Shown here: piece by piece, positions 3,847 to 56,460 of the stretch
How positions within the stretch are numbered: the first letter of the stretch is position 1
How the letters are laid out: every line of letters starts with the position of its first letter
Assembly: GCA_963753345.1 (NCBI GenBank)
Contig: CAVWBU010000032.1
Span: 128,001-192,000, forward strand
Direction of reading: 5' to 3'
DNA: 64,000 nucleotides
Source: an uncultured Fibrobacterota bacterium
GTDB lineage: Bacteria; Fibrobacterota; Chitinivibrionia; Chitinivibrionales; FEN-1185
Notes under the pieces: generated by a model
Told to the model about the DNA's origin: nothing
The model's database searches: none
Seen by the model: only the letters and a program-made list of their open reading frames with translations
Translations under genes and position numbers: made by a program

Positions 3847-3865
3847 TCAATAACATACAGCAGAT

Positions 3866-4022
3866 TTGGGCGTTCCCCTCCCCCTCGACAAAGCTCGGGG
3901 TCGGGTCGGTTCTCCTTCCGGTCTCGGCCTTCGGCCTCGGGCCGCCTCGGCCCTATGCCGCGTGGCGCGGCGGGTCCGGGCGGCATCCCACTTTGGCGGG
4001 ACCTCCAGTCGCCCCTAACGCG
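3866..4022 (-). repeat. Structured repeat family B, copy B1
   Basis: Minus strand reads GCGTTAGGGGCGACTGGAGG...CGAGACCGGAAGGAGAACCG...AACGCCCAA, matching the other B copies. Confidence 0.85.
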
Positions 4023-4123
4023 AAAACCAAAACAACAACTGGAAGCTGGGTTTTTTTTATTGCCGCGCGCAGTATACCAATGAAGTTGCAGAAAGCGTCA
4101 TTGCGAGTGCTTGGAATTCCAGG

Positions 4124-4308
4124 TGGCGCAAAGATGTAATTGACTTAACGGATTTCTTCTGCCGCGCGCTAGGCAGGACCGGAGTGGTCCCGCCGTAGCG
4201 GGATTGCCGGCCGACCCCTCGCCGAAGGCGACTAGGGGCGGACCGGCAACGAGGCGAACAGCCGAGCCCGGAGGGAGGGCCGCCGCTGCGAAGCAGCGGG
4301 GCGCCCGA
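4124..4308 (+). repeat. Structured repeat family B, copy B2
   Basis: GTAATTGACT..CTGCCGCGCGCTAGGCAGGACCGGAG...CGAGCCCGGAGGGAGGGCCG...GGCGCCCGA. Confidence 0.85.
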
Positions 4309-4331
4309 TTCTTTTTCTTTGAGCTATTTAT

Positions 4332-8345: not shown

Positions 8346-8885
8346 ATGATGAAGCGTGTGTCTGTCTTGTTCGCCGTGTCGCTTGCGTGTCTGCTGCTTG
8401 CCGCAGGATGTCAGAAAAAGGTCACCAAAGTCCAGGAGCCGGTGAAGCCGGCCGAACAGCCCGCGCCAAAGGCTGTCGAAGCCCCGGCGCCCGTGCAGCT
8501 TCCGGATTCCTTCAAAGTGGTGGACCTCGACGCAAAAATGAAGGAAATTCTTGTCCCGGTGTATTTCAACTACGACAAGTACGATCTGCTTCCCGAGAGC
8601 GTAACCAAACTCGAAAAGATCGCGCCCTTTTTGCAGAGCAACACCGCCATCCGCGTGCTCATCGAGGGCAACGCCGACGAGCGCGGGTCGGCCGAATACA
8701 ACGTGGGCCTCGGCGAAAGCCGCGCTCGTACCGTAAAGAACTACCTCACCACCTACGGCATCCCGGACACGCGCATGGAAATCACCTCGTACGGCAAGGA
8801 GCGGCCTGCGTTTCCCAATTGCGGGACGGATGAATCGTGTCATGCGAAGAATAGACGGGTTGAGTGGAAGATCCTGGCAAAGTAA
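8346..8885 (+). CDS. pal: Peptidoglycan-associated lipoprotein (OmpA family)
   Basis: Lipobox LAAGC, VYFNYDK, IEGNADERGS.EYN, SYGKERP, KNRRVE; RBS AGGAGG. Confidence 0.9.
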   Translation: MMKRVSVLFAVSLACLLLAAGCQKKVTKVQEPVKPAEQPAPKAVEAPAPVQLPDSFKVVDLDAKMKEILVPVYFNYDKYDLLPESVTKLEKIAPFLQSNTAIRVLIEGNADERGSAEYNVGLGESRARTVKNYLTTYGIPDTRMEITSYGKERPAFPNCGTDESCHAKNRRVEWKILAK

Positions 8886-8903
8886 ATAATAATAGAAATA
8901 CTC

Positions 8904-9126
8904 TGGTGGGGGCACCACCTGACGGTGGTTCCCCCTGGCCCCCGGCTTCCGCCTCGGCACCTATCACATCCATCCCAATACGGCGGCGATCCGGGGGCAC
9001 ACTCCCTCCTGCGAAGGTGCGCGCGAGTTCGTTCGCTTGACACTCGCGAAGCGTCGCACCTTCGCAACGCAACCGTTGCGGTATACCCCCTCCGCCTCCG
9101 GCACCTCCCCCTGAAACAGGGGGAGG
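8904..9126 (+). repeat. Structured repeat family A, copy A1
   Basis: GGGGGCACCAC..GTGGTTCCCCC ... GCGAAGGTGCG..CGCACCTTCGCAACGCAACCGTTGCG ... CCCCCTCCGCC..GGGGAGG; homologous to 29973 and 55868. Confidence 0.85.
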
Positions 9127-9301
9127 AAAAACCAATAATAAGTTCGGAAATTCTCTAAAGTCAATAATCATAAAAGAATCCTCTCCCATCTCCACACCAT
9201 GGACGACGTCGAAAACACTGGCGTTTGAAAAGGTCCCTGCCCCTAATTATTGCTTTTCCGCATCGATGATACTATATTTTTACCAGAAAGGGATCGATAC
9301 G

Positions 9302-9511
9302 ATGCTCAGTTCGACCATATCCTCCAAGTTCCAGGTCGCCATTCCCAAGCGGGTGAGGGAGCAGCTCTGCCTTAAGGCGGGAACAAGGGTCCACGTCATT
9401 CCCTACCGCGACCGGATCGAGTTCATTCCCGTGCGTCCAATGAAATCCATGAGGGGTTTCATCAAACGGAAGTTCAGCAGCGCGATCATCCGGGAAAAGG
9501 ACCGTGTGTGA
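9302..9511 (+). CDS. AbrB/MazE-type antitoxin (VapB)
   Basis: STISSKFQVAIPKRVREQL..G swapped-hairpin motif; overlaps toxin start. Confidence 0.85.
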   Translation: MLSSTISSKFQVAIPKRVREQLCLKAGTRVHVIPYRDRIEFIPVRPMKSMRGFIKRKFSSAIIREKDRV

Positions 9512-9894
9512 ACCTCGTCGATTCCTCGGGTTGGATCGAGTACTTTCTGGATCTGCCCGGTGCCGCGCATTTCGCCCGGCCCATCGAGGATGAAAAAGAG
9601 CTCCTTGTCCCTTCAGTCTGCATCTACGAGGTCTTTCGGAAACTGCTCACCGAGACGGACGAGACCACCGCGCTTCAGGCGGTGACCCAGATGCAGCTGG
9701 GCAGGGTGGTGGAGCTTGACGAGGTCCTTGCAATCAACGCCGCCCGCCTCGGGTACGATCTCAAGCTCCCTTTTGCGGACAGCATCATCCTTGCCGCGGC
9801 CTTGATGCACCGGGCCACCCTCTACACTATGGACGAGCACTTCAAGGACAAGCCCTGGGTCAAGTACTTCCCCCACAAATCCAAACTTTCCTAG
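9508..9894 (+). CDS. vapC: PIN-domain toxin VapC
   Basis: VDSSGWIE, YEV, ADSII, T.DEHF acidic PIN residues. Confidence 0.9.
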   Translation: MNLVDSSGWIEYFLDLPGAAHFARPIEDEKELLVPSVCIYEVFRKLLTETDETTALQAVTQMQLGRVVELDEVLAINAARLGYDLKLPFADSIILAAALMHRATLYTMDEHFKDKPWVKYFPHKSKLS

Positions 9895-9981
9895 ATTTTT
9901 CTCACACGGCCTCCGGTTGAGGATCTCAATGAGGGCAAAGTCTATCTTTTGACTTGCGTGCTTCGTTGGTGAGAATTCCGG

Positions 9982-10196
9982 TTGGCGCGAAAAAAAGTAA
10001 TTGACTGAATAGAATTCTGCTGCCGCGCGTTAGGGGCGACCGGAAGCCGCTCTGGAGAGCGGTGCCGCCCGGACCTGGCCGCGTACCCGCGGCATTGGGC
10101 CGTGACGGCCCGAGGGCTTGCCCGAGACTGGAGGGAGAACCGCCCCCAGTGTAGAGACGCCACACCGTGGCGTCTCTACACTGGGGGAACGCCCAA
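9982..10196 (+). repeat. Structured repeat family B, copy B3
   Basis: Near-identical to 46190-46403; terminal hairpin contains GTAGAGACGCCAC..GTGGCGTCTCTAC. Confidence 0.9.
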
Positions 10197-10322
10197 TTTT
10201 TTTTGGTATTTGCTCAAACCTCCCTTTCCCTTGAAATCCCCCCCGGTAGCATATATTTTTGATGTTCTTTTTTGACATCACCATCTCCTTTCCATATTAA
10301 TACACACCTTTTGGAGGCTCCT

Positions 10323-13121
10323 ATGGCAAAGTACGTGTACTTTTTCGGCGGCGGCAAGGCCGACGGCAACGAATCGATGAAAAACCTTCTTGGCGGCAAG
10401 GGCGCGAATCTTGCCGAAATGGCCGGACACCCCAAGCTCCGGCTGCCTGTGCCTCCCGGCTTCACGGTCACCACCGAAGTCTGCACCTACTATTATGAGA
10501 ACAAAAAGACCTATCCCAAGGAGCTCAAAGGCCAGGTGAACAAGGCCATGGCCCAGGTTGAAAAACTCATGGGCAAGAAGTTCGGCGATCCCAACGACCC
10601 GCTGCTCATGTCGGTCCGCTCGGGCGCGCGCCGCTCCATGCCCGGCATGATGGACACGGTGCTCAACGTCGGGCTTAACGACGTCACCATCCAGGGTCTT
10701 ATCGCCAAAACCAACAACCCGCGCTTCGCCTACGACGCCTACCGCAGGCTCGTGATGATGTATGCGGACGTTGTCATGGAAAAAGCCGCTGGTATCGAGC
10801 TCGAAGGCGGCAAGGGAATTCGCAAATTGATGGATGAGAGACTTGGCGAGGTCAAGAAACAAAAGGGCTACAAGATCGACACGGACCTGACAGCCGACGA
10901 TCTCAAGGCGCTTGTGGCGGAGTTCAAGCAGATGGTGAAAGACCATCTCGGCCAGTCGTTCCCGGAAACACCTGAGGAACAGTTGTGGGGCGGCATCGGC
11001 GCGGTGTTCATGAGCTGGAACGGCAAGCGCGCGGTCGACTACCGACGCATCGAGAAGATACCGGACGACTGGGGAACTGCGGTCAATGTGCAGAGCATGG
11101 TGTTCGGCAACATGGGCGAGGATTCGGCCACGGGCGTCGCCTTCACGCGCAACCCGGGCAACGGCGACAACCACTTTTACGGCGAATACCTCATCAACGC
11201 GCAGGGTGAAGACGTGGTGGCCGGCATCCGCACGCCCGCTCCCATCAATGCGCAATCGGCAAACGACCAGAGCAGGAACCTTCCCACGCTCGAAAGCGCA
11301 TTTCCTGAATGCTACAAGCAGCTCTTTGCGTTCCAGAACGGGCTCGAAAAGCATTACAAAGACATGCAGGACATCGAATTCACCATTGAAAAAGGCAAGC
11401 TGTACATGCTGCAATGCCGCGTTGGAAAACGCAACGGCGTTGCCGCGGTGCGCATGGCCGTTGACATGTACAAAGAAAAATTGATCGACGCAAATACCGC
11501 CATCATGCGCGTTGGCCCCAACCAGCTCGTGGAGCTCCTGCTGCCCATGATCGATCCCAAGGCGGAAAGCGCCACGTCGCCGATTGCCAAGGGACTTCCT
11601 GCAGGCCCGGGCGGCGCCAAGGGTCGCGCGGTGTTCACGTCGAAGGACGCGGTGGCATGGGCCGAGCGCGGGGAGAAGGTTATTCTTGTCCGTGAAGAAA
11701 CTTCTCCCGAAGACGTTGACGGCATGCACAAGGCCCAGGCCATTCTCACGGCCAAGGGCGGCATGACCTCGCATGCCGCGCTCGTTGCGCGCGGCTGGGG
11801 CAAGTGCTGCGTGGTCGGGTGCGCCGACATCGAGGTCGGCAACGACAACAAGCACTTTACAACCAAGAAGGGCGTCAGCATCAAGGAAGGCGACTGGCTC
11901 ACGCTCAACGGCACCAAAGGCACGGTGTATCAGGGCGGCCTGTCGCTCATCGACGTGGACCTCGCCACGAACACCACCTACAAGGACCTCATGGCGCTTG
12001 TCGACAAAACGCGCGTGCTCAAAGTGCGCACCAATGCCGACACGCCCAAGGACGCCAAAAAGGCCGTGGAGTTCGGCGCGGAGGGCATCGGCCTGTTCCG
12101 CACCGAGCACATGTTCTACGGCGAGGGCTCCGACAAGCCGCTGTTCCTCCTTCGCAAGATGATCATGAGCAAGACGCTTGACGAGCGCAAGGCTGCGCTG
12201 GCCGAGCTGTTCCCGTTCGTCAAAAGCGACATCAAGGCCACCATGGAGGCCATGGGCGGCAGGCCGGTAACCATCCGGCTGCTCGACCCGCCGCTGCACG
12301 AGTTCGTGCCGCACGCGGCCGACAAGCTCGAGGCGCTCGGGCGCGAGCTGCACGTGGACGCGGCGGAGCTTCACAAACGCGCCGAGGGCCTGCGGGAGAA
12401 CAACCCCATGCTCGGTCACCGCGGCGTGCGCCTCGGCATCACGTATCCCGAGATCACCGAGATGCAGGTGCGCGCCATTCTCGAAGCGGCCGGCGAGCTC
12501 ATCAAGGAGGGCAAGGAGGCGAATCCCGAGATCATGATTCCGGTCACCTGCACGGTCGCGGAAATCAATGACCAGAAGGTCATTGTGGACCGCGTGTATC
12601 CGGAAGTTTGCGCGAAAGTGGGACTCAAGAAGATCCCGTTCATGTACGGCACCATGATCGAAATCCCGCGCGCCGCGCTCACGGCCAACAAAATGGCGCA
12701 GACCGCGGAATTCTTTTCGTTCGGCACCAACGACCTCACGCAGATGGGCTTCGGCTTCTCGCGCGACGACATCGGCAGCTTTTTGCCCGATTATCTCAAC
12801 AAGAAGACCCTGCCGGCCGACCCGTTCCAGACCATCGATCAGGAAGGGATCGGCGAGCTCATCAAGATCGGCATCGAGCGCGGACGCTCGGTGCGGCCGA
12901 AGCTCAAGGTCGGGATATGCGGCGAGCACGGCGGCGATGCGGATTCGGTCAAGTTCTGCCACCGCGTGGGCATGAATTATGTTTCCTGTTCGCCCTTCCG
13001 CGTACCCATTGCCCGGCTGGCGGCCGCGCAGGCGGCAGTGGAGGCTTCGGTAAAAACGAAGAAGCCCGCACAGAAGAAAGCCGGCAAGGCGAAGAAATCT
13101 TCTTCCAAGAAGAGAAAGTAA
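10323..13121 (+). CDS. ppdK: Pyruvate, phosphate dikinase
   Basis: MAKYVYFFGGG, LLGGKGANLAEM, GGMTSHAA phospho-His, GIGLFRTEHMF, GICGEHGG; RBS GGAGG. Confidence 0.97.
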   Translation: MAKYVYFFGGGKADGNESMKNLLGGKGANLAEMAGHPKLRLPVPPGFTVTTEVCTYYYENKKTYPKELKGQVNKAMAQVEKLMGKKFGDPNDPLLMSVRSGARRSMPGMMDTVLNVGLNDVTIQGLIAKTNNPRFAYDAYRRLVMMYADVVMEKAAGIELEGGKGIRKLMDERLGEVKKQKGYKIDTDLTADDLKALVAEFKQMVKDHLGQSFPETPEEQLWGGIGAVFMSWNGKRAVDYRRIEKIPDDWGTAVNVQSMVFGNMGEDSATGVAFTRNPGNGDNHFYGEYLINAQGEDVVAGIRTPAPINAQSANDQSRNLPTLESAFPECYKQLFAFQNGLEKHYKDMQDIEFTIEKGKLYMLQCRVGKRNGVAAVRMAVDMYKEKLIDANTAIMRVGPNQLVELLLPMIDPKAESATSPIAKGLPAGPGGAKGRAVFTSKDAVAWAERGEKVILVREETSPEDVDGMHKAQAILTAKGGMTSHAALVARGWGKCCVVGCADIEVGNDNKHFTTKKGVSIKEGDWLTLNGTKGTVYQGGLSLIDVDLATNTTYKDLMALVDKTRVLKVRTNADTPKDAKKAVEFGAEGIGLFRTEHMFYGEGSDKPLFLLRKMIMSKTLDERKAALAELFPFVKSDIKATMEAMGGRPVTIRLLDPPLHEFVPHAADKLEALGRELHVDAAELHKRAEGLRENNPMLGHRGVRLGITYPEITEMQVRAILEAAGELIKEGKEANPEIMIPVTCTVAEINDQKVIVDRVYPEVCAKVGLKKIPFMYGTMIEIPRAALTANKMAQTAEFFSFGTNDLTQMGFGFSRDDIGSFLPDYLNKKTLPADPFQTIDQEGIGELIKIGIERGRSVRPKLKVGICGEHGGDADSVKFCHRVGMNYVSCSPFRVPIARLAAAQAAVEASVKTKKPAQKKAGKAKKSSSKKRK

Positions 13122-29496: not shown

Positions 29497-29961
29497 ATGC
29501 CGATGACGGCCAGGAAAACGCGCGCCCGCAGGCGCACGCGCGCCCCGTGGGACGAGTACTTCATGAAGATCGCGCAGCAGGTGGCCACGCGCTCGACCTG
29601 CGACCGCAAGAACGTGGGCGCGGTGATCGTGCGCGACAAGACCATCCTTTCGACCGGGTACAACGGCAGCGTGCGCGGTATGCCGCACTGCGACGACGTG
29701 GGCCACACCATGGAAAACGGCCACTGCATCGCCACGGTGCACGCCGAAGCCAATGCGATCATCCAGGCCGCCAAGAACGGCGTGGCGCTTGACGGAGCGG
29801 ACATCTACATAACGGCGTCGCCGTGCTGGCACTGCTTCAAGCTCATCGCCAACAGCGGGATAAAGAGGATTTTCTACCTCGAATTCTACCGCGACAATCA
29901 CGTCATTGAAGTAGCGGGACAGGCGGGAATAGAGTTAAGGCAAGTAGTAATTAATTCTTGA
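29497..29961 (+). CDS. dCMP deaminase / ComEB family
   Basis: WDEYFM, RSTC, TGYNG, HAEANA, PCWHC. Confidence 0.92.
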   Translation: MPMTARKTRARRRTRAPWDEYFMKIAQQVATRSTCDRKNVGAVIVRDKTILSTGYNGSVRGMPHCDDVGHTMENGHCIATVHAEANAIIQAAKNGVALDGADIYITASPCWHCFKLIANSGIKRIFYLEFYRDNHVIEVAGQAGIELRQVVINS

Positions 29962-29972
29962 ACCAATAATCT

Positions 29973-30171
29973 TGCTGGGGGCACCGCTTCGCGTTTCCCC
30001 CTCGCTTCGGCCTCCTCGGCCTTCGGCCTGCGGTGTCCTGCGCTACCCCCTCCAGCAAAGGGGCGCGCGAGGTCGCTCGCTTGACGCTCGCGAAGCGTCG
30101 CCCCTTCGCAACGCAACCGTTGCGGAACAACCCCCTCCGCCTTCGGCACCTCCCCCTTAACAAGGGGGAGG
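29973..30171 (+). repeat. Structured repeat family A, copy A2
   Basis: 3' two-thirds like A1/A5; 5' arm nearly identical to the reverse complement of 34425-34476. Confidence 0.85.
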
Positions 30172-30228
30172 ACATTCAATACTGCAGTTATTGATGGTTG
30201 GTGGTTTAAGAAATGGCGACGACCCTGA

Positions 30229-30398
30229 CTGCCGCGCGTTAGGGGCGACTGGAGGCCGCGCTGGAGCGCGGTGCCGCCTGACCACGGCCCGCAGGGCCAT
30301 TGTGGCAGGCGGCCCGAGGCCGAAGGCCGAGACCGGAAGGAGAACCGACCCCCAGTACAGTGGTGCATCCTGCACTACCGTACTGGGGAAACGCCCAA
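30229..30398 (+). repeat. Structured repeat family B, copy B4
   Basis: CTGCCGCGCGTTAGGGGCGACTGGAGG...CGAGACCGGAAGGAGAACCG...AACGCCCAA. Confidence 0.88.
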
Positions 30399-30428
30399 AT
30401 AGTTGTTTTGAAATTCAGATAATGGAAG

Positions 30429-32909: not shown

Positions 32910-33054
32910 CAGGAGTAAAGACGGGACGGTGGCGGGTTCGACATAATCATCGATAATTTTTGGCATGGTGACGGGGAGCACCAACGAGTCGCACCGAGTG
33001 CGGGAAGTACCAATACTCTTCTTGCCTTCCCGGTTCTCATAATTCTATATTCAT

Positions 33055-33119
33055 TTTCGAATGATCAGGCGGCTGCCTTGCGCAGCGTAGCCGGGCCGGT
33101 ACAGCGGCAACGGACGAAC
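33055..33119 (+). ncRNA. NiCo (czcD) metal-sensing riboswitch aptamer
   Basis: TGATCAGGC-[GCTGC cttgc GCAGC]-GTAGCCGGGCC..CGGCAAC four-way-junction signature directly upstream of a CDF gene. Confidence 0.8.
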
Positions 33120-33120
33120 A

Positions 33121-33159
33121 GCTCCGTGGGACATAGAAACGTTCCGCGGGGCTTTTTTT
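33121..33159 (+). terminator. Riboswitch expression-platform terminator
   Basis: GCTCCGTGGGAC-atagaaac-GTTCCGCGGGGC-T7 between aptamer and RBS. Confidence 0.8.
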
Positions 33160-33175
33160 GTTTGCGGAGGATCCC

Positions 33176-34072
33176 TTGCAAACCGACCTTTACAAATTTC
33201 TTATCGCTTCCCTTTCCGTGGCCTCCAACCTCCTGCTCGTGATACTCAAGCTGGTGGTGGGATTTTCCATCGGCTCCATATCGGTGATTTCCGAGGCGCT
33301 GCATTCCGGCGTGGATGTTTTTGCCGCGGTTGTGGCCACCATCGGCGTAAAGCGGTCCTCGGAGCCCGCCGACAGGGATCACCGGTTCGGCCACGGGAAA
33401 TTTGAAAGTTTTTCCGGTCTTGTCCAGGCGTTTCTCATTTTCCTTGCGGCGTTCTGGATCGTGTACGAGGCGGTGCGCAGGCTGGCGCATCCGGCGGCAA
33501 TGGGGGAGCTCGGCTGGGGCGTTGCCGTGATGCTGGTTTCCTCTCTTGTCAATACGGTGATCGGCCTTGTGCTCCTCGGCGCGGCGAGGAAGACCGGTTC
33601 CCTTGCCCTCAAGGCCGATGCATGGCATTCCCTCACCGACGTGATCACGTCCGGGGGCGTGTTCCTGGGCCTTGCGGCGGTATGGGTTGGGAGGCGGCTG
33701 TTTCCCGGCGTGGATCTGGCTTGGATCGATCCGGTTGCGGCTGTTGCAGTGTCAGTCCTCATTTTCAAGGCGGCGTGGGACCTCACCCTGGAATCCGCGC
33801 GCGACCTGCTTGACGTGAGCCTGCCGCAGCAGGAAGAAGACGAGATCAGGGCCCTGCTTGCACGCACCTACCCGGACGTGGTTGACTGTCACAAATTTCG
33901 CGGCCGTAAATCCGGCTCGAAACGGTTCGTGGAGTTCCACATCAGGGTCGATCCGGCGATGTCGGTCGAAGCCTCGCATTCCCTGGATCACAGCATCGCC
34001 GCGGAAATCAAGCAGCGGTTTCCTGGCGCGGAGGTGATGGTGCATATCGAGCCGAAGAGGACGGATAAATAA
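33176..34072 (+). CDS. Cation diffusion facilitator (FieF/CzcD family) transporter
   Basis: TTG after GGAGG; SEALHS..D, H.FGHGKFE, ADAWHS.TD, C-terminal VHIEP. Confidence 0.93.
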   Translation: MQTDLYKFLIASLSVASNLLLVILKLVVGFSIGSISVISEALHSGVDVFAAVVATIGVKRSSEPADRDHRFGHGKFESFSGLVQAFLIFLAAFWIVYEAVRRLAHPAAMGELGWGVAVMLVSSLVNTVIGLVLLGAARKTGSLALKADAWHSLTDVITSGGVFLGLAAVWVGRRLFPGVDLAWIDPVAAVAVSVLIFKAAWDLTLESARDLLDVSLPQQEEDEIRALLARTYPDVVDCHKFRGRKSGSKRFVEFHIRVDPAMSVEASHSLDHSIAAEIKQRFPGAEVMVHIEPKRTDK

Positions 34073-34073
34073 A

Positions 34074-34259
34074 TTGGGCGCCCCGCCGCTTCGCGGCGGC
34101 GGCCCTCCTTCCAGGCTCGGCTGGTCAGCCTCGTTGCCGGACCGCTCCGAGTCGCCTGCGGCGAGGGGTCGGCCGGCAATTCGCTCCAGATCACCTTTCA
34201 GTCCGGCCTGGCGCGCGGCAGAAGAACTCCTATTAGGCAATTGCTTCTTCTCGCGCCAA
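34074..34259 (-). repeat. Structured repeat family B, copy B5
   Basis: Minus strand TTGGCGCG..CTGCCGCGCGCCAGG...CGAGCCTGGAAGGAGGGCCG...GGCGCCCAA; close to B2. Confidence 0.85.
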
Positions 34260-34359
34260 ACGGTGCTCCAAATACGCATACGTAAACGCGTTAGCGCGTC
34301 TAAGCGTATATGAGTCACCATCTCAACTCCTCAACTTTTCAACTATTCAACTCACTTTC

Positions 34360-34488
34360 TTGGTGCCCCCGCAGCCGAAGCTTCTTTCTTGCCAATCAAC
34401 TTGCTTGGGGGCTACCAACGAAGGGGTAGCGCAGGACACCGCAGGCCGAAGGCCGAGGAGGCCGGAGCGAGGGGGATACTTCCCCCGC
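34360..34488 (-). repeat. Structured repeat family A (subtype 2), copy A3
   Basis: Minus strand GGGGGAAGTATCCCCCTCGCT..CGCTACCCC.TCGT.GGTAGCC...GGCACC, matching 54225-54372. Confidence 0.8.
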
Positions 34489-34590
34489 ATCAATCGTCTT
34501 TGTATGCTAAAATCACCAAGACATGTCTAAATCGAAATATTTGCAATTATCCCCCCGTAATGAGTATACTTACTAATTGGAAAGAAAACC

Positions 34591-46038: not shown

Positions 46039-46189
46039 AGGGGATGTAAGAATAATAACCTGAGAGACAGGGAGGACACGGAGAAAGAAAAGGCAGGTGG
46101 TTTACGGTTGATTGAGGAGTTGAGAAGAAAAAAGCGTTGAAAAGCAGAAAATGCAAAGAACAGGTTTGGCTGATTATTGCGGCTGCCGA

Positions 46190-46403
46190 TTGGCGCGAAA
46201 CAGAGTAATTGACTAAATAGAATTCTGCTGCCGCGCGTTAGGGGCGACCGGAAGTCCCGCTAGAGTGGGATGCCGCCCGGACCCGGCCGCGTACCCGCGG
46301 CATTGGGCCGTGGCGGCCCGAGGGCTTGCCCGAGACTGGAGGGAGAACCGCCCCCAGTGTAGAGACGCCACACCGTGGCGTCTCTACACTGGGGGAACGC
46401 CCA
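46190..46403 (+). repeat. Structured repeat family B, copy B6
   Basis: Near-identical to B3 except a swapped first hairpin (GTCCCGC-TAGA-GTGGGAT vs GCCGCTC-TGGA-GAGCGGT). Confidence 0.9.
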
Positions 46404-46421
46404 GATCTTTTTCTTATTTCC

Positions 46422-47873
46422 TTAGAACGTCCCGTCAAGCACCTCCGGGTCCAGAAGCTTTCCAAACGAGAACGTGTAATTGAGCTGGAAATTCGGCGCC
46501 CACGAGGCGACGTCCGATGCGCGCGGGACCAGGATGCCCATGAAATCGATTCCCAGGCATACCACGTTGTGCTGTGCAATAAGCACGGCGATCTTGCCGG
46601 CCGGCGCCATGATGTACGATTCGTTCATCGAGTAATGGTCGCTGCCGCCCGCCTCGGTCACCTCCTCGGACTGCCGGTTCCTCTGCATTCCGGAAACGCC
46701 GATGCCGCCCTTGACAAAGCCGTTGCCGAACACGCCGAGCGCGCTGTACTCGAAGAAGGCGTTCTGCGTGGGGTCCTGGGTGCTCTGGTTGAACGGAATC
46801 GGCCACGAAATCCTTCCCCTGAACCCGGTGTTCGGCTTGCCCGCGCGTATGTTGAAGACCCAGTTGAAGCAATACAGTTCCTTGAAATGCGCGGTCGTGT
46901 TGTCGTAGATCCATATGCCTTGATTCGGGTCATAGAACGGCGCCACAACGTTGGTCTCCTGCGCTGCCTTGTTCTGCATTATGGCAAGGCCTATGCCCGC
47001 GCTGAAATATCTAAATCCCCATTCGTGTTCGAGACTCAGGTAAAGGTCCGGAATTCCTTTTGCCGAACCGGTGAAGACGGTGTCGTTGCCCGCAAGCGGC
47101 ATACCCAGCTTTATCCTCGCCTGTGAGTGCGGCGTGGTGGGATGAACGTAGTAGATCATGGCACCCCAGCGGGACTGGTCGGTGCCGAGCACTCCCACCG
47201 CAACCCTGCCCATGATGCCGACAGCGGGGGCGGTCACCAATCCGCAGTTTGCCGGTTCCTCGGGCCGTTTTTCCGTTTCCGCCTCGCGTACGGGCGCGCC
47301 TTCAACCACGGGGCCGGGTTCGGTGACTGTTTCCTGTGCACGCCTTGGCGCGGAAGCAACGGACCTCGGTGCTTCCGAAGGCGGAAGCACGGCGCCGGCG
47401 ATGTCATCGGCAACGCGGCGCGGGACGTCGGTGTAAAAGTCTTCTATGGCGCCCCGGTACTGGTAGTCGCGGAACAGGAGGCGCCGCTTCTCCTTGACAT
47501 TGTAGAGCGAAAGGGTGAAGGTGAAAAGCGTGCCGATTTTTCCGAGCGAAGCCGATGCCGCAAACGCGGCCTGAGCCTTTTCGCCCGCGGGGATGACGCA
47601 TTCCGCGCTCATGCATTCGCCGCCTGCGTCGGGCCGGGCTTCCTTGAATGCGGCAAGCGTTTTTGCCTTGTCGACCACCTGCAACTGCCCGCTTGCCGCG
47701 CATTTTGCCCTCACGGCATCGGCAATCAGGGAGGCGTCGTCTTCGGTGACGCCCGTGGCCTTTATGGGCAGCAGGCAGACCGACTGCGGGGCTGCGGGAG
47801 AAACCGGGGATTGGGCGAACAGCGGGACGCAGGCAAGAGTAGCCCCGATACAACAACGCAGAAACGGCTGCAT
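46422..47873 (-). CDS. Exported protein: CsgG/TolB-N-like domain + probable C-terminal beta-barrel
   Basis: Signal peptide, ECMSAEC...SLGKIG pattern, aromatic alternating strands. Confidence 0.65.
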   Translation of the reverse strand: MQPFLRCCIGATLACVPLFAQSPVSPAAPQSVCLLPIKATGVTEDDASLIADAVRAKCAASGQLQVVDKAKTLAAFKEARPDAGGECMSAECVIPAGEKAQAAFAASASLGKIGTLFTFTLSLYNVKEKRRLLFRDYQYRGAIEDFYTDVPRRVADDIAGAVLPPSEAPRSVASAPRRAQETVTEPGPVVEGAPVREAETEKRPEEPANCGLVTAPAVGIMGRVAVGVLGTDQSRWGAMIYYVHPTTPHSQARIKLGMPLAGNDTVFTGSAKGIPDLYLSLEHEWGFRYFSAGIGLAIMQNKAAQETNVVAPFYDPNQGIWIYDNTTAHFKELYCFNWVFNIRAGKPNTGFRGRISWPIPFNQSTQDPTQNAFFEYSALGVFGNGFVKGGIGVSGMQRNRQSEEVTEAGGSDHYSMNESYIMAPAGKIAVLIAQHNVVCLGIDFMGILVPRASDVASWAPNFQLNYTFSFGKLLDPEVLDGTF

Positions 47874-49753: not shown

Positions 49754-51316
49754 ATGTTTAAGAATTTAATTATCTTATTGATCCCCACGGTATTCCTTTA
49801 TTCTCAGCAAAATACTGCCCCAACGATCGCAGTTAGCGACCTTGTCGGCCAAGGTGTTAATCAGAGCGAGGCGACCGTCGTAAGTGAACAGCTTCGGACG
49901 GAATTGCAAAAGACAGGACATTTTCGCATTATAGAGCGAAACCAAATGCAGGAAATTCTTAAGGAACAGGGTTTTCAGCAAACAGGCTGCACAACTGATG
50001 CTTGCGCTGTAGAGGTGGGGCAATTGCTTGGCGTGAAAAACATCGTCGTGGGATCCCTTGGAATTGCGGGGAGCTACACCGTCCTGACCGTAAGGATTCT
50101 TGATGTTCAGACTGGCGAGGTACTTGTTACTGAAACAGGGAACGCCAAAGGTGGTATTGATGAAATGATTGAAAAGGGAATACGCGAAGTAGCCGGAAAA
50201 TTGGTCGTTGATTTGTCAAGGATCATGTGCCAAGCAATAGTCGATGCGGCAAAGAACGGGAATCTCAAAGAAAAAAGTCTCTTGCAGCGAGGCGCGGATG
50301 TGAATTCGAAGGCAAACAGTGGCTGGACTCCGCTGCATTGCGCTGCAAAATATGGGCATGAGGCCATAGTGAGTTTTCTGATTAGCAAAGGCGCAAATGT
50401 AAATGCGAAGATCAGCGGTGGCTGGACTCCGCTGCATGAGGCTGCTGAAGCTGGCTATATAGAAGCAGTCAAGATTCTTTTGAACAACGGTGCAGATGTG
50501 AATTCAGTGAGTTATCTTGTTGACGAAGGCGCGGATGTGAATTCGAAGGCAAACAGTGGCTGGACTCCGCTGCATTGTGCTTCAAAATATGGGCATGAGG
50601 CCATAGTGAGTTACCTGATTAGCAAAGGCTCGAATGTGAATGCCAAGACCAATAATGGCTGGACTCCGCTGCATGAGGCTGCTGAAGCTGGCTACACGGA
50701 AGTAGTCAAGATTCTGTTGAACAATGGTGCAGATGTGAATTCAAAAGCCAACGGGGGCGAAACTGCGTTGCATTGTGCCTCCGTTTTTAGACATGAAACC
50801 GTAGTGAATTATTTAATTAGTAAAGGCGCAAATGTGAATGTAAAAGACATTACTGGAGCAACTCCGTTGTATTATGCCGCCATAAATGGGAATGAGGTCA
50901 TAGTGAATTATCTGGTCATCAAAGGCGCGGATGTGAATTCGAAGGCAAACAATGGCTGGACTCCGCTGCATTGTGCTGCCCACAACGGACAGGAGGGTGT
51001 AGTAAAGTTCCTGATCACCAACGGTGCAAATGTGAATTCGAAGGCAGACAGTGGCTGGATTCCGCTGCATTTAGCTGCTGACAGTGGCCACGCAGAAATA
51101 GTCAAAATCCTGTTGAACAAGGGTGCTGATGTGAATGCGAAGACAAGCAATGGCTTTTCCGCTTTGGACGTGGCTGCGTCTCGCGGGCATTCGGATGTGG
51201 TGGAGATACTCAAGGAATACAGGGCAAAGCATCGGCTTGTAGACATTCATCTTACTCCCGAAGAGATAAAATCGGCGGGATTTGAAAAGAAACCCGACAC
51301 CACGCATGACCGATAG
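49754..51316 (+). CDS. Exported CsgG-like domain + ankyrin-repeat protein
   Basis: IIERNQMQEILKEQGFQQTGC; about 10 GADVN...GWTPLH repeats. Confidence 0.9.
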   Translation: MFKNLIILLIPTVFLYSQQNTAPTIAVSDLVGQGVNQSEATVVSEQLRTELQKTGHFRIIERNQMQEILKEQGFQQTGCTTDACAVEVGQLLGVKNIVVGSLGIAGSYTVLTVRILDVQTGEVLVTETGNAKGGIDEMIEKGIREVAGKLVVDLSRIMCQAIVDAAKNGNLKEKSLLQRGADVNSKANSGWTPLHCAAKYGHEAIVSFLISKGANVNAKISGGWTPLHEAAEAGYIEAVKILLNNGADVNSVSYLVDEGADVNSKANSGWTPLHCASKYGHEAIVSYLISKGSNVNAKTNNGWTPLHEAAEAGYTEVVKILLNNGADVNSKANGGETALHCASVFRHETVVNYLISKGANVNVKDITGATPLYYAAINGNEVIVNYLVIKGADVNSKANNGWTPLHCAAHNGQEGVVKFLITNGANVNSKADSGWIPLHLAADSGHAEIVKILLNKGADVNAKTSNGFSALDVAASRGHSDVVEILKEYRAKHRLVDIHLTPEEIKSAGFEKKPDTTHDR

Positions 51317-52036: not shown

Positions 52037-54199
52037 ATGGAATCCATCCAGGGAATCGTCACCGACATAACATTCCGCAACGAGGAGAACGGATTCACCG
52101 TGCTCAAACTTGCGGAATCGGAATCCTCGCCCGCGGTGCTGTGCGTGGGCGCGATGCCCGCGGTGGAGCCGGGGGAGACGCTCAAGGCAACGGGCGAGTT
52201 CCGGCTCCACGCGCGGTTCGGGAAACAATTCGCGGTCTCGGCGTTCGAGACCGTGCGGCCGCTCACCCTCGCGGGGATCGCCGCGCTGCTCGGCAGCGGC
52301 CTCATCGAGAACATCGGCGAGGTGCGTGCCAAGAAAATCATCGACGTGTTCGGCCTCAAGACGCTTGACATACTGGACAATGAGCCGGCCCGCCTCCTGG
52401 AGGTGCGCGGCATCGGGAAGAAGACGCTGGAGAAGATCGTTGAGGCGTGGCAACGCAAGCGGCGCATCAGGGAGCTCATGGTGTTTCTGCAGGAATGCGC
52501 GATCACGGTCAACATGGCGTCTAAGATTTATTCCGCGTACGGAGACTCGGCGCAAGAGAAAATATCGCAGAACCCCTACTGCCTCATCGACGACGTGTGG
52601 GGCGTGGGGTTCAAGAAGGCCGACGCCATTGCCCAGAAACTCGGGTTTGCGCACGATTCGTTCAAGCGGATACGCGCCGGTCTCACCTATGTGATGTCGG
52701 AGGCCGCCGGAAACGGCCATGTCTATCTTCCCTCAACCGGGCTTGTTTCGAGCGCCGCGGCGATCCTCGAAGTCCCTGAGGACAAGACGCTGTTTTCGCT
52801 CGACCACATGGTGAAGGAAGGCGCGCTGGCTGCCGACGAAAGCCGCATCTACCTGCCGCACCTTTACGGAGCGGAATGCGCGGTCGCCGCGCTGCTGTCG
52901 GGCCTGGCGGGGGAGCGCTGCGGGCCGCTTGCGAAATACGACGCGCGCTATGTTTCGTCGTGGCTGGAATCCTACTCGGCCAAGAACCGCTGGCACGCCG
53001 ACCCGAAGCAGAAGGAGGCGGTGGCCGCCGCGCTTCTGCACGGCGCAAGCCTGCTCACGGGCGGGCCCGGCACGGGAAAGACCACCACGCTGCAGGTTAT
53101 CGTCTCGTTTTTGCGAGAGCATAACATACGCGTCGCACTCGCCGCGCCCACGGGCAGGGCCGCGCAGCGCATGGGAAGCATCGCGGGCCTTCGCGCCAGC
53201 ACCATCCACCGGATGCTCGAATACCGTCCGGGCGGCCAGGGGTACCGTTTTGCGCGGGACGCAAGCAACCCCGTCGAGGCCGACATGATTATCGTGGACG
53301 AAACCTCCATGATCGACATCGTGCTCATGCGGAGCCTGCTTGCGGCCGTGCGTCCCGGCACCTCGGTGCTGTTCGTGGGGGACGAGAACCAGCTTCCGTC
53401 AATAGGGCCGGGCACCGTGCTCGCCGACATGATCGCCTCGGCCGCCCTTCCGCACGTGCGGCTCACCACGGTGTTCAGGCAGGCGGCGCAGAGCGGCATC
53501 GTTACCGCGGCGCACGACATCATGGCCGGCAGGGTCCCGGTGCTTCGCAACGAGAAGGAGGGGAACATCTTCTTTGTAAACGAAGAGGACCCGGACCGCT
53601 GCTGCGCCGCGCTGGTTGACCTGGTGGTGAAACGCCTGCCGGCCCGGTACGGGTTCGATCCCGCGGCTGGCATCCAGGTGGTGTCGCCCATCCACAACGG
53701 CGTGCTGGGGACGCGGAACCTCAACGCCCTGCTCAAGGCCGCGCTCAATCCGGGCAAACGGTTCGTGCGGCGCGGCGACGCCGAGTTTTCCGCGGGCGAC
53801 AAGGTGATGCAGGTGAAGAACGACTACGACCGCGGCGTGTTCAACGGCGACATCGGGTTCGTGGCCGACATTGTTGACGAAAGCGACATTGTTGTCGATT
53901 TCGACGGCCAGAAGGTGCGGTATGAACCGCGCCACCTCGACGAGCTGGTCCACGCATACTGCATCAGCATCCACAAGAGTCAGGGCTGCGAGTTCCCGGC
54001 CGTGGTGATCCCTATTGCGACCCAGCACTTCGTGATGCTCCAGCGAAATCTTATTTATACCGCCATCACGCGCGCGAGGAAACTGTGTGTGCTCGTGGGC
54101 ATGCCCCGGGCGCTTGCCATTGCGGTGAAAAATAACGCGACCGTGGAGAGGTATTCGAGGTTGAGGGAGAGAATAGTTGACAAGATAAAAGTGTTATGA
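52037..54199 (+). CDS. recD2: RecD2 (RecD/TraA family) helicase
   Basis: NEENGFTV, NPY.L, TGGPGTGKT, APTGRAA, VDETSM, SIHKSQG.EF, YTAITRA. Confidence 0.93.
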   Translation: MESIQGIVTDITFRNEENGFTVLKLAESESSPAVLCVGAMPAVEPGETLKATGEFRLHARFGKQFAVSAFETVRPLTLAGIAALLGSGLIENIGEVRAKKIIDVFGLKTLDILDNEPARLLEVRGIGKKTLEKIVEAWQRKRRIRELMVFLQECAITVNMASKIYSAYGDSAQEKISQNPYCLIDDVWGVGFKKADAIAQKLGFAHDSFKRIRAGLTYVMSEAAGNGHVYLPSTGLVSSAAAILEVPEDKTLFSLDHMVKEGALAADESRIYLPHLYGAECAVAALLSGLAGERCGPLAKYDARYVSSWLESYSAKNRWHADPKQKEAVAAALLHGASLLTGGPGTGKTTTLQVIVSFLREHNIRVALAAPTGRAAQRMGSIAGLRASTIHRMLEYRPGGQGYRFARDASNPVEADMIIVDETSMIDIVLMRSLLAAVRPGTSVLFVGDENQLPSIGPGTVLADMIASAALPHVRLTTVFRQAAQSGIVTAAHDIMAGRVPVLRNEKEGNIFFVNEEDPDRCCAALVDLVVKRLPARYGFDPAAGIQVVSPIHNGVLGTRNLNALLKAALNPGKRFVRRGDAEFSAGDKVMQVKNDYDRGVFNGDIGFVADIVDESDIVVDFDGQKVRYEPRHLDELVHAYCISIHKSQGCEFPAVVIPIATQHFVMLQRNLIYTAITRARKLCVLVGMPRALAIAVKNNATVERYSRLRERIVDKIKVL

Positions 54200-54224
54200 A
54201 ATTATTATGAAAAGGTTATGGCAG

Positions 54225-54372
54225 GTGGGGGAAGTATCCCCCTCGCTTCGGCCCGGCCGCGCCGCTTTACAAACCAGCATCCCTGAGGCGCGACCGGTCC
54301 TCCGCTACCCCCTCGTGGGTAGCCGCCTTGACAAAGCAGTTGCAAGACCATGCATTGTTGTGGCGGCACCCA
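54225..54372 (+). repeat. Structured repeat family A (subtype 2), copy A4
   Basis: GGGGGAAGTATCCCCCTCGCTTCGG...CGCTACCCCCTCGTGGGTAGCCGCC...GGCGGCACCCA. Confidence 0.8.
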
Positions 54373-54406
54373 CAAAGAGCAGTTGAAAAGTTGAATAGTT
54401 GAAACG

Positions 54407-54596
54407 GAGAAGAAGTAATTGACTTAATAGGATTCTTCTGCCGCTGCGTTAGGTGGACCGAAGGGTGAGCTAGAGCGAATTACCGCCTGATCCCCAGCCG
54501 AAGGCGATTGGGACAGGCGGCAACGAGGCGAACAGCCGAGCCCGCAGGGAGACCGGCCCGACCCCGAGCGAAGTCGAGGGGGAGGGCAACGCCCAA
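54407..54596 (+). repeat. Structured repeat family B, copy B7
   Basis: GTAATTGACT..GCGTTAGGTGGACCG...CGAGGCGAACAGCCGAGCCCG...AACGCCCAA. Confidence 0.85.
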
Positions 54597-54626
54597 GTTT
54601 CTATATTTCTATCGGAATGGTATTTC

Positions 54627-54911: not shown

Positions 54912-55851
54912 AGTAACAATCGGCGTGATCGGCGCGGGCGTGCTGGGATCGTACCATATCCAGAAGTGCCTCAAGAACAAAGACGTGGACTTTGCGGGGT
55001 TCCACGACTCGTCGGCCAATCGCCGCGCCGAGGTTGCGAAAAAACTCGGCGCGCGGCCATGGGACGCCATGGAAGGCCTTGTTGACGTGTGCGACGCCGT
55101 CATCGTGGCGACGCCCTCGTCGACCCACGCGGCCGTGGCGCTGGCCTGCATGGGGAAGAAGAAACACGTGCTCGTGGAGAAGCCGCTCGCGCCGAGCTTT
55201 GCCGAGGGGAAGGCTCTTGTCGAGGCCGCGCGCGAGCGGGGCGTGGTGCTGCATGTGGGGCACTCGGAGGCCTTCAATTCCTCTTTTGTGAAGCTTCTGT
55301 CGCTGGCTCCGACGCCCAAGTTCATCGAGATCCACAGGCTCGCGCAGTACTCGCCGCGCGGCACCGACGTGCCGGTAATCCTCGACCTCATGGTGCACGA
55401 CGTGCATCTCGTGCTGCGCCTGCTTTCGGAGGAGCCGCGCTACGACGCCATCGCGGCCACGGGCGTGCCGGTGGTGTCGCAGGACATCGACATCGCCAAC
55501 GTGCGCATCCCGTTCCCCTCGGGCTGCGTGGTGAACTGCACCGCCAGCCGCATATCCGCCAAGAAGATGCGCAAGCTGCGGCTGTTCGCGCGCGACAACT
55601 ACTATTCCGTCGATCTGGACAAAGAGGAAATCGAGCACTACTTCCTCACCGGCGCGGCGCAGGCGGGCCGGCCCCTTCCCGTTGAATTCTCCAAAGACAA
55701 GACCAGACACACGGACGCGCTCGAGGCCGAGCTCGCCGCATTCGTCGCCGCAATAGCAGGCGCGCCGGATCACAAGGGCGTGTCCGGCGAAGAGGCGCTC
55801 AAAGTGCTCAAAGTGACGGATACGATAATGGGACTACTAAAAAATCAATAA
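54904..55851 (+). CDS. Gfo/Idh/MocA oxidoreductase (GnnA-like)
   Basis: GVIGAG.LG..H, VEKP, VGH.E.FN, RGTDV.VILDLM.HD, TASRIS. Confidence 0.88.
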   Translation: MAKVTIGVIGAGVLGSYHIQKCLKNKDVDFAGFHDSSANRRAEVAKKLGARPWDAMEGLVDVCDAVIVATPSSTHAAVALACMGKKKHVLVEKPLAPSFAEGKALVEAARERGVVLHVGHSEAFNSSFVKLLSLAPTPKFIEIHRLAQYSPRGTDVPVILDLMVHDVHLVLRLLSEEPRYDAIAATGVPVVSQDIDIANVRIPFPSGCVVNCTASRISAKKMRKLRLFARDNYYSVDLDKEEIEHYFLTGAAQAGRPLPVEFSKDKTRHTDALEAELAAFVAAIAGAPDHKGVSGEEALKVLKVTDTIMGLLKNQ

Positions 55852-55867
55852 AGATTCCTGCAATGCT

Positions 55868-56077
55868 TGGTGGGGACACCACTTCGTGGTTTCCCCTGGG
55901 GTGCAGCTTCCTCCCGCCGGAAATCGGCGGGAGGTGATCTGCACCCACACCCTTTCCTGCGAAGGTGCGCGACAAGGTCACTCGCTTGACGCTCGCGAGT
56001 CGTCGCACCTTCGCAACGCAACCTCGGCGGAAGATCCCCCTCTGCCTTCGGCATCTCCCCCTTGTTAAGGGGGAGAT
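55868..56077 (+). repeat. Structured repeat family A, copy A5
   Basis: GGGGACACCAC.TCGTGGTTTCCCC...GCGAAGGTGCG..CGCACCTTCGCAACGCAACC...CCCCCTCTGCC..GGGGAGA. Confidence 0.85.
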
Positions 56078-56133
56078 AATTCCATTTCAAACATCTTTTC
56101 GCCAAGCAGAAATGTGGATGCGGCACTATCCCT

Positions 56134-56324
56134 CTGCCCGCGCGCCAGGCAGGACCGGAGGGTGAGCCAGAGCGAATTGTCACTCCGTTCCCCAAGGAAT
56201 AGTAATAGCGCTTCGCGCTTCATTATTATGTCACTTGCCTTGTGCCGGCCGAGGCCGGAGATTCAACCCGCCCAACAGGAAGGGCGGGTTATAGGCCGCC
56301 GCCGCAAAGCGGCGGGGCGCCCAA
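56134..56324 (+). repeat. Structured repeat family B, copy B8 (centre replaced by a module also present at 6358-6420)
   Basis: GCGCCAGGCAGGACCGGAGGGTGAGCCAGAGCGAATT...GGCCGCCGCCGCAAAGCGGCGGGGCGCCCAA. Confidence 0.75.
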
Positions 56325-56460
56325 GACTTCATGGCTTGGAAATGAGGTTCTTATCATTCCTTATCCCAATTACTATCTCTTTTGCTTGCACCCGTGCATT
56401 TGGTATATTATAGGGCGAATTATTTATATTTAACCGGATATCGCAAACCCGGAAACCTGT

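Follow-up and report, generated by a model that had tools for sequence, protein, structure and literature searches.

The locus considered here raises the question of how a small toxin-antitoxin module came to stand between two families of folded repeats, and whether those repeats brought it there. It lies in a 64-kb stretch of DNA (the window, to whose coordinates all positions refer) from an uncultured peat bacterium, represented by a metagenome-assembled genome (MAG) of 4.5 Mb in 55 contigs that is 94% complete; this assembly is labeled G000, related genomes are labeled G001 to G006, and contigs are given as C plus a number. Between a pal-like lipoprotein gene and ppdK, a copy of repeat module A is followed by a vapBC gene pair and then by a copy of repeat module B. 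The original prediction took A and B to be the left and right ends of one non-autonomous element, recognized as folded single-stranded DNA or RNA and moved in trans by an HUH/RAYT-type or other nuclease (RAYT, REP-associated tyrosine transposase; REP, repetitive extragenic palindrome), and A-vapBC-B to be its loaded copy. We favor, with modest confidence, a different reading: a mosaic of independent structured modules, similar to the bacterial interspersed mosaic elements (BIMEs), whose seams are recombinogenic, dispensable DNA, and in which vapBC would be an accessory insertion beside a resident copy of B and not the cargo of a transposon. The locus is made up as follows.

8346..8885, + strand: OmpA-family (Pal-like) lipoprotein gene, pal (PF00691, 66.4 bits; 97% amino acid identity to the G001 orthologue)
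8881..9160, + strand (core about 8901-9136): module A, type 1 (long form), a GC-rich hairpin chain of 280 nt (nhmmer, 201 bits)
9137..9301, + strand: AT-rich stretch upstream of vapB, GC 0.41, unique in the genome
9302..9511, + strand: vapB-like antitoxin gene, 69 aa, SpoVT/AbrB-MazE fold (PF04014, 24.5 bits, slightly below the cut-off of 24.7)
9508..9894, + strand: vapC-like PIN-domain toxin gene, 128 aa (PF01850, 49.4 bits against a cut-off of 23.6)
9895..9977, + strand: unique 83-bp stretch from the vapC stop to B, with no second copy in the genome
9973..10213, + strand (core about 10020-10200): module B, long form, a closed multi-hairpin with a T-rich tail, 240 nt (nhmmer, 198 bits)
10069..10187, + strand: gene-conversion tract of about 120 nt inside B (four-way alignment; matches the paralogue at 46183-46430 with 2 differences)
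10323..13121, + strand: ppdK, pyruvate phosphate dikinase (PF02896, PF01326, PF00391)

The spacer of pal and ppdK does hold a complete AbrB-VapC module, as had been proposed, in the two open reading frames (ORFs) at 9302-9894. They have the make-up of a type II VapBC toxin-antitoxin system, namely a PIN toxin and a small upstream antitoxin with a DNA-binding fold, translationally coupled through a 4-nt overlap (GTGA) of the vapC GTG start and the vapB stop. The vapB-vapC pairing is kept at five homologue loci, and in G006 a homologue of the antitoxin (71% identical) adjoins a VapC. The translation of the PIN ORF contains the acidic residues D5, E41, D91, and D108, which we take to be those with roles in the toxin. 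About 140 nt of AT-rich unique DNA separates A from the vapB-like ORF, and the promoter of vapBC presumably lies within this stretch (9137-9301); a promoter and terminator scan of the locus returned nothing beyond consensus-level matches. The gap between A and B measures 812 bp by profile edges and about 840 bp from core to core. The GC content of the cassette (0.56-0.59) equals that of the genome (0.559), the cassette and its flanks have no other copy anywhere in the genome, and its junctions show neither direct or inverted repeats of at least 8 nt nor target-site duplications. The layout A-vapBC-B is real and not an assembly artifact, because metagenome contigs bridge its junctions: contigs from four public runs (two studies) span the vapBC-B junction and one spans the A-vapBC junction, although one of the bridging runs could itself be the source sample. 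None of the contigs of the four runs showed a joint that bypasses vapBC; since contigs drop rare variants, they are silent on rare empty alleles or circles.

Relatives hold the same spacer without the gene pair. In the sister genome G001, pal is followed by a type-2 A, a GTTGA tract, a long-form B, and ppdK; in G004, a type-1-like A and a short-form B stand 113 bp apart; G005 has a rearranged set of fragments, and G003 has a plain terminator hairpin and no repeats. The locus thus exists in empty as well as filled form, with an empty A-B pair in G001 and G004, and vapBC is not a conserved tenant: G000 has one copy of VapC, and none was found in four of the five other genomes of the genus (G001, G002, G004, and G005). 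Its closest homologue, in G006, is 65% identical at the amino acid level and sits in an unrelated gene context, and neither A nor B was found at vapBC homologue loci in relatives (0 of 7) or in metagenome contigs (0 of 23). Because relatives with A and B at this site lack the gene pair and the homologue loci carry neither repeat, vapBC is a recent arrival in a spacer that already held repeats.

The boundaries of the insertion bear on what arrived with it. Compared with G001, G000 loses homology at the stop codon of pal and regains it precisely at the 5' edge of B, and everything between differs, the type of A included. B itself is 91% identical to its G001 orthologue over its 5' 88 nt and 94% identical over its 3' end and flank, and the promoter region of ppdK is likewise conserved (94% nucleotide identity upstream). 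From this comparison, the B beside vapBC is the resident orthologous copy, so that it did not arrive with vapBC. The central part of this B has another history. The tract 10069-10187, which includes a perfect 45-nt hairpin, is nearly identical to 46277-46395, 36 kb away, and unlike the G001 and G004 orthologues, and the two B copies (9973-10213 and 46186-46422) are 92% identical over 237 nt. This is recent gene conversion, in one direction or the other, between dispersed B copies, and it shows that such copies exchange sequence; in G001, the locus that corresponds to the B at 46184 is broken across two contig ends. The A at 8881-9160, on its side, has closest paralogues that are just 81-84% identical. 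Moreover, type-1 A with long-form B is the rare combination of the two modules, and the flanks of vapBC are therefore not halves of one canonical composite. Entry of vapBC was neither a clean insertion into an A-B spacer nor the arrival of a loaded unit.

Whether A and B are nevertheless parts of one element is a question for their other copies. By nhmmer, the window contains five A and eight B copies, and each A has a B downstream on the same strand, as the original prediction had noticed; three B without an A had escaped it. Four of the five pairs are adjacent and the fifth is split by the vapBC gap, in keeping with the claim of four empty pairs and one loaded. The copies outside the pal-ppdK spacer are as follows.

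29950..30414, + strand: empty A(type 1)-B composite (A 29950-30229, B 30197-30414); G001 and G004 carry htpX and variable genes there, between repeat units
34056..34510, - strand: empty A(type 2)-B composite (A 34259-34510, B 34056-34267); the G002 site has a CAACT/GTTGA tandem tract only
54199..54613, + strand: empty A(type 2)-GTTGA tract-B(long) composite (A 54199-54410, B 54394-54613); the G004 site has GTTGA tracts only
55847..56340, + strand: empty A(type 1)-B composite (A 55847-56130, B 56124-56340); the G002 site has a 38-nt inverted B-terminal hairpin only
3849-4041 (- strand) and 4114-4327 (+ strand): two B copies head to head, without A
46184..46423, + strand: solo long-form B, 146 nt past a gene end, the conversion-tract partner of the B beside vapBC

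The claim that A starts just past stop codons held as well: in the window, A cores begin 12-26 nt downstream of them, and the stop of the pal-like gene lies 16-19 nt ahead of its A core. Across the genome, where profile matches number 301 for A and 427 for B, a B lies downstream of an A, on its strand and no more than 300 bp away, in 213 cases, as opposed to one case of the reverse order and seven opposite-strand combinations, so that the A-then-B order is strongly non-random and a real architecture. The modules also occur apart, however, with 88 A and 214 B matches outside adjacent pairs; B forms 30 head-to-head doublets (5' ends facing) and 22 tandems and stands alone, and full-length solo type-1 A copies are known without any B for kilobases. 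One solo type-1 A, on C19 (74600-79700), is followed by a defense-like block of an Mrr-type restriction endonuclease, a ResIII/helicase gene, and an ORF with SEC-C and aspartyl-protease domains, and a short-form B stands 4.6 kb downstream. Where A and B are adjacent, their forms are linked: of the 24 pairs with a type-1 A, 23 have the short form of B and one the long form, and of the 161 pairs with a type-2 A, 146 have the long form (Fisher p = 2.6e-18). Several small contigs (C5, C7, C29/C30, C38, C42, and C55) duplicate parts of larger ones, flanks included, at 98.7-100% identity; they represent assembly redundancy or a strain mixture, and the raw repeat counts are slightly inflated.

Repeat units prefer the 3' ends of genes without being confined to them. 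They occupy 28.5% of convergent, 15.5% of divergent, and 10.3% of co-directional spacers, as delimited by our gene caller; composites in co-directional spacers run sense in 73 cases versus antisense in 33, and A lies at a median of 14 nt past a co-oriented stop codon. The system is narrowly distributed. Matches to A and B occur in five of six genomes of the genus, the sixth (G003) having just one, of 43 nt, and 25 genomes of other genera yielded a single 44-nt match; a literature search found no publication on such repeats in Chitinivibrionales. Short tandem tracts of AGTTGA(A/G)(A/T), for example at 54378-54404 and 34315-34344, join A to B in type-2 composites and remain, in either orientation, at sites of G002 and G004 that have no A or B; these tracts might serve as an array for protein binding or represent the most ancient layer of the mosaic.

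Both modules fold strongly. The A at the locus has a predicted free energy of -114 kcal/mol (z -6.1) and the B a z of -6.5, values equaled by none of 200 shuffles in either case. Across the eight B copies, compensatory changes affect 8 of 24 predicted pairs, including pairs of the helix that joins the 5' and 3' ends of B, and B is thus structurally self-contained, with a terminal helix of its own to close it. When a consensus fold was computed on the nhmmer alignment, few pairs were recovered, because the variable hairpins are misaligned there. The sense strand is the more stable in 227 of 286 B copies but in 73 of 235 A copies, and G-U exceeds A-C in the profile alignment by 361 to 52, a count biased by the pair-prediction method.

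The genealogy of the composites argues against a single element. Among 1238 high-identity matches between 206 composites, 341 cover A alone, 549 cover B alone, and eight cover both; seven of these eight include the flanks and are therefore duplicated small contigs. A and B share the same nearest neighbor in just 5 of 189 composites (an assembly duplicate accounts for two of the five and a single reciprocal pair for another two), a mismatch that is suggestive, although not final, against copying as a unit. The outer ends of the composites, 5' for A and 3' for B, have no more than TTGG in common (45 composites, compared by eye), which leaves no terminal inverted repeats. Sites without a composite in G002 and G004 are not clean, since a GTTGA/CAACT tract or a 38-nt inverted B-terminal hairpin is left there, and those of G002 show no clean excision footprint. 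By these comparisons, composites are not copied as units, and the spacers are a BIME-like patchwork of small modules. The original prediction stands in its A-B architecture and in the recent arrival of vapBC at a repeat-filled spacer. The single element with A and B as its ends is not supported, in view of the scarcity of joint A and B matches, the solo, head-to-head, and tandem B copies, and the closure of B on itself; nor is the mobility of a loaded copy, in view of the resident B, the mismatched A and B types, and the lack of a second copy of any cargo.

From an evolutionary point of view, A and B would be two distinct modules, each folding by itself, of an intergenic repeat system that has a very high copy number and is restricted to part of a single genus. 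vapBC would be a lineage-specific module that entered the repeat-filled pal-ppdK spacer in the interval from the pal stop to the 5' edge of the B already resident there; turnover of the A module may have accompanied this entry or been a separate event. Entry would have been by recombination at the repeats or close to them, perhaps with another strain as the source of the DNA, and the seams would take up and lose accessory genes in this way. vapBC may sit at a seam because the repeat seam is the sole dispensable DNA between two housekeeping genes, and because the repeats are demonstrably recombinogenic.

Several observations weigh against this mosaic reading. The linkage of A type to B form gives the composites some unit character, and a star-like burst from a master copy would also fail the nearest-neighbor test. 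To the right of vapBC, the break of the insertion coincides exactly with the 5' edge of B. Moreover, two independent insertions are peculiar to G000, vapBC and a pair of ORFs on C23, and in each case the A and the B on either side are direct neighbors in the sister genome, which is more pointed than insertion anywhere in a spacer. On the technical side, the A and B profiles were built from the window copies, just five and eight, respectively; the spacer and gene-context figures rest on a crude home-made gene caller; and the MAG contains redundant small contigs.

The second of the insertions peculiar to G000 lends some weight to the idea that the A-B seam is a preferred integration site, used by site-specific recombination or through homology of the dispersed repeats, at which empty pairs repeatedly gain, and can lose, small accessory genes such as those for toxin-antitoxin pairs, lipoproteins, and defense. 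Intervals from A to the next B that could hold genes are few: six measure 301-1500 bp, and 11 measure 301-6000 bp. We scanned 18 ORFs from nine of the 11 (one interval of 354 bp had no clear ORF, and the vapBC locus was scanned separately), and they encode surface or secreted proteins, small lipoprotein-like proteins, a split HD-domain gene, restriction and helicase functions, and housekeeping genes. At C23:24889-26686, ORFs of 275 and 120 aa stand between A and B in G000, whereas in G001 the pair is empty, its modules 65 bp apart, and the corresponding distance is 314 bp in G002 and 213 bp in G005. Thus G000 has cargo at two loci where G001 has an empty pair, the outgroups being without cargo as well. 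On C47, a unit of A, a leucine-rich-repeat lipoprotein gene, and B is common to G000 and G001 and entirely missing in G005, where 82 bp separate the flanking genes. The site of the 29950 pair differs in its genes between genomes: G004 (C7:87500-92000) has two direct pairs around htpX, a Pol-beta-type nucleotidyltransferase gene, and a GT4 glycosyltransferase gene; G001 (C560:2500-8600) has htpX, a WYL/WCX regulator gene, a ClpP-like SDH protease gene, and two ORFs of no known kind; and G000 has a single A-B pair and none of these extra genes, a pattern that would be expected from recombination between flanking repeats. The cargo and the variable genes nearby are of accessory kinds, and gene conversion between B copies shows that the repeats recombine. 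A-gene-B layouts are in weak, marginal excess over the expectation from solo frequencies, the next co-oriented unit starting with B in 6 of 11 cases after a solo A versus 9 of 38 after a B (one-sided Fisher p = 0.059). On the other hand, the cases are a handful and were found by inspecting A to B intervals, and their break points vary, one replacement spanning all of A and the other (C23) starting inside the 3' part of A and deleting the 5' extension of B. Repeat units fill 10-29% of spacers, depending on type, so that some coincidence is expected, and no recombinase is linked to the repeats. We regard a preferred integration site as unlikely, although deserving of serious weight.

Improbable, in our judgment, is pure coincidence, by which a solo A behind pal and an unrelated solo B before ppdK would flank a gene pair that came by an unrelated route, the repeats having no part in it. 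Unpaired copies of both modules are common, and the A-gene-B count is near expectation; however, relatives show that A and B were adjacent at pal-ppdK before the insertion, the C23 locus repeats the pattern, and the repeats are visibly involved in sequence exchange.

The last alternative, the trans-mobilized element of the original prediction, would come with an enzyme and with copies of its load. PF01797 (Y1/RAYT) had no match in G000 at E <= 0.001, in a search whose control matched 6 of 14 reference genomes, and PF07282 (TnpB) had none either, its control search having worked, so that the 94%-complete assembly offers no support for HUH/RAYT mobilization. Nor does any A-B pair enclose a transposase or an HUH nuclease, as none was present among the 18 ORFs scanned in nine of the 11 intervals up to 6 kb or at the vapBC locus, and no second copy of any cargo between A and B was found in the genome. 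Three other candidate partners were rejected: the single IS110-family gene of G000 adjoins neither A nor B, a small GIY-YIG gene has a solo B nearby, as B density would predict, and another GIY-YIG nuclease gene (a 103-aa ORF, at about 1037-1890 of the stretch C27:259555-262773) lies in its own 111-nt tandem hairpin array, unrelated to A and B, with no A or B within about 3 kb. Although the strict order of 213 to 1, the strong folding with compensatory changes, the linked architectures, and the empty alleles in relatives speak for such an element, we consider it very improbable given a B orthologous to the resident copy, mismatched A and B types at the locus, composites that share neither spacers nor genealogies, and the absence of recopied cargo, terminal inverted repeats, target duplications, and matching enzymes.

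On a bolder reading, the dispersed A and B copies could be portable homology arms or docking sites, such that genes between an A and a B could be swapped into, or lost from, some 200 seams without a dedicated integrase array. This extension is speculative and would, in our estimate, more probably fail than hold by a wide measure; if true, it would explain the toxin-antitoxin, lipoprotein, and defense genes at seams. The repeat system is unusual in any case, with at least 700 module copies that make up about 3% of a 4.5-Mb genome and that are far larger and more elaborately folded than REPs. If its seams truly guide gene gain and loss, they would open a new path for the flux of accessory genes in bacteria; otherwise, the locus still serves as a clean worked example of how repeat-filled spacers can mimic cargo-carrying mobile elements and a caution for scans that infer mobility from flanking repeats alone.

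Other features of the window are unrelated to this system. A scan with Rfam 15 at gathering scores returned two tRNAs and a NiCo riboswitch only, A and B matching no family, and nothing credible appeared over 8850-10260 at E <= 10. The NiCo riboswitch (33051-33136, 49.8 bits) lies upstream of a gene at 33158-34072, and the called gene at 49754-51316 contains a 99-nt tandem array of at least seven units (50290-51238) that has no relation to A and B.

Among known systems, A and B work most like REP/BIME, but they fail the defining features of REPIN-RAYT (REPIN, REP doublet forming hairpins), of miniature inverted-repeat transposable elements (MITEs), of IS200/IS605 derivatives, and of integron cassettes. 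Like MITEs and the palindrome-associated transposable elements (PATEs) of IS200/IS605, they are non-coding, structured, intergenic, and multi-copy. Unlike MITEs, they have no terminal inverted repeats, no target duplications that we could see, and no copying of whole elements; unlike IS200/IS605 PATEs or omega-RNA ends, they come with no TnpA (PF01797) or TnpB (PF07282) in G000, nor with either in the A to B intervals. In integrons, such as the Vibrio superintegron with its toxin-antitoxin cassettes, attC sites of a single family stand between the cassettes, all of which form one array next to an integrase gene. The present locus resembles chromosomal integrons in its small toxin-antitoxin pair bracketed by folded repeats and in its empty and filled sites, but its borders belong to two dissimilar dispersed families (the integron integrase itself was not searched for). 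The genes of Neisseria minimal mobile elements (MMEs) were reportedly described by Saunders and Snyder in 2002 as exchanged by homologous recombination of their flanks. The likeness there is in strain-specific genes between conserved flanking genes in a repeat-rich genome; the immediate borders here are dispersed repeat modules and not conserved genes only, and natural transformation is not known for this organism. One account of MMEs lists the genes within them as strain- and species-differentiating (PMC1538595). As for REPIN-RAYT, A and B are likewise non-autonomous folded repeats, present in hundreds of copies and confined to a lineage, and the 30 head-to-head B doublets recall the inverted REP doublet of a REPIN (PMC3337134); A-B, however, is not an inverted doublet (only the B-B doublets are inverted), G000 has no PF01797, and units are not copied. 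Single REPs are palindromes of 20-40 bp in alternating orientation (PMC3733652, PMC2817692), whereas A and B are hairpin chains of 150-280 nt, dissimilar to each other and in direct order, with B closed by a long-range helix and no Y1 transposase found in G000. On the other hand, the definition of BIMEs in PMC2817692 as composite mosaics of repeats, and the description of REP-BIME in PMC3333891, fit what we found here, namely 213 composites in two set architectures with GTTGA linker tracts and, in this genome, a fixed order. As those accounts portray REP/BIME in enterobacteria and pseudomonads, so A and B are high-copy, GC-rich, and extragenic, form mosaics with set linkers, and are enriched at the 3' ends of genes.

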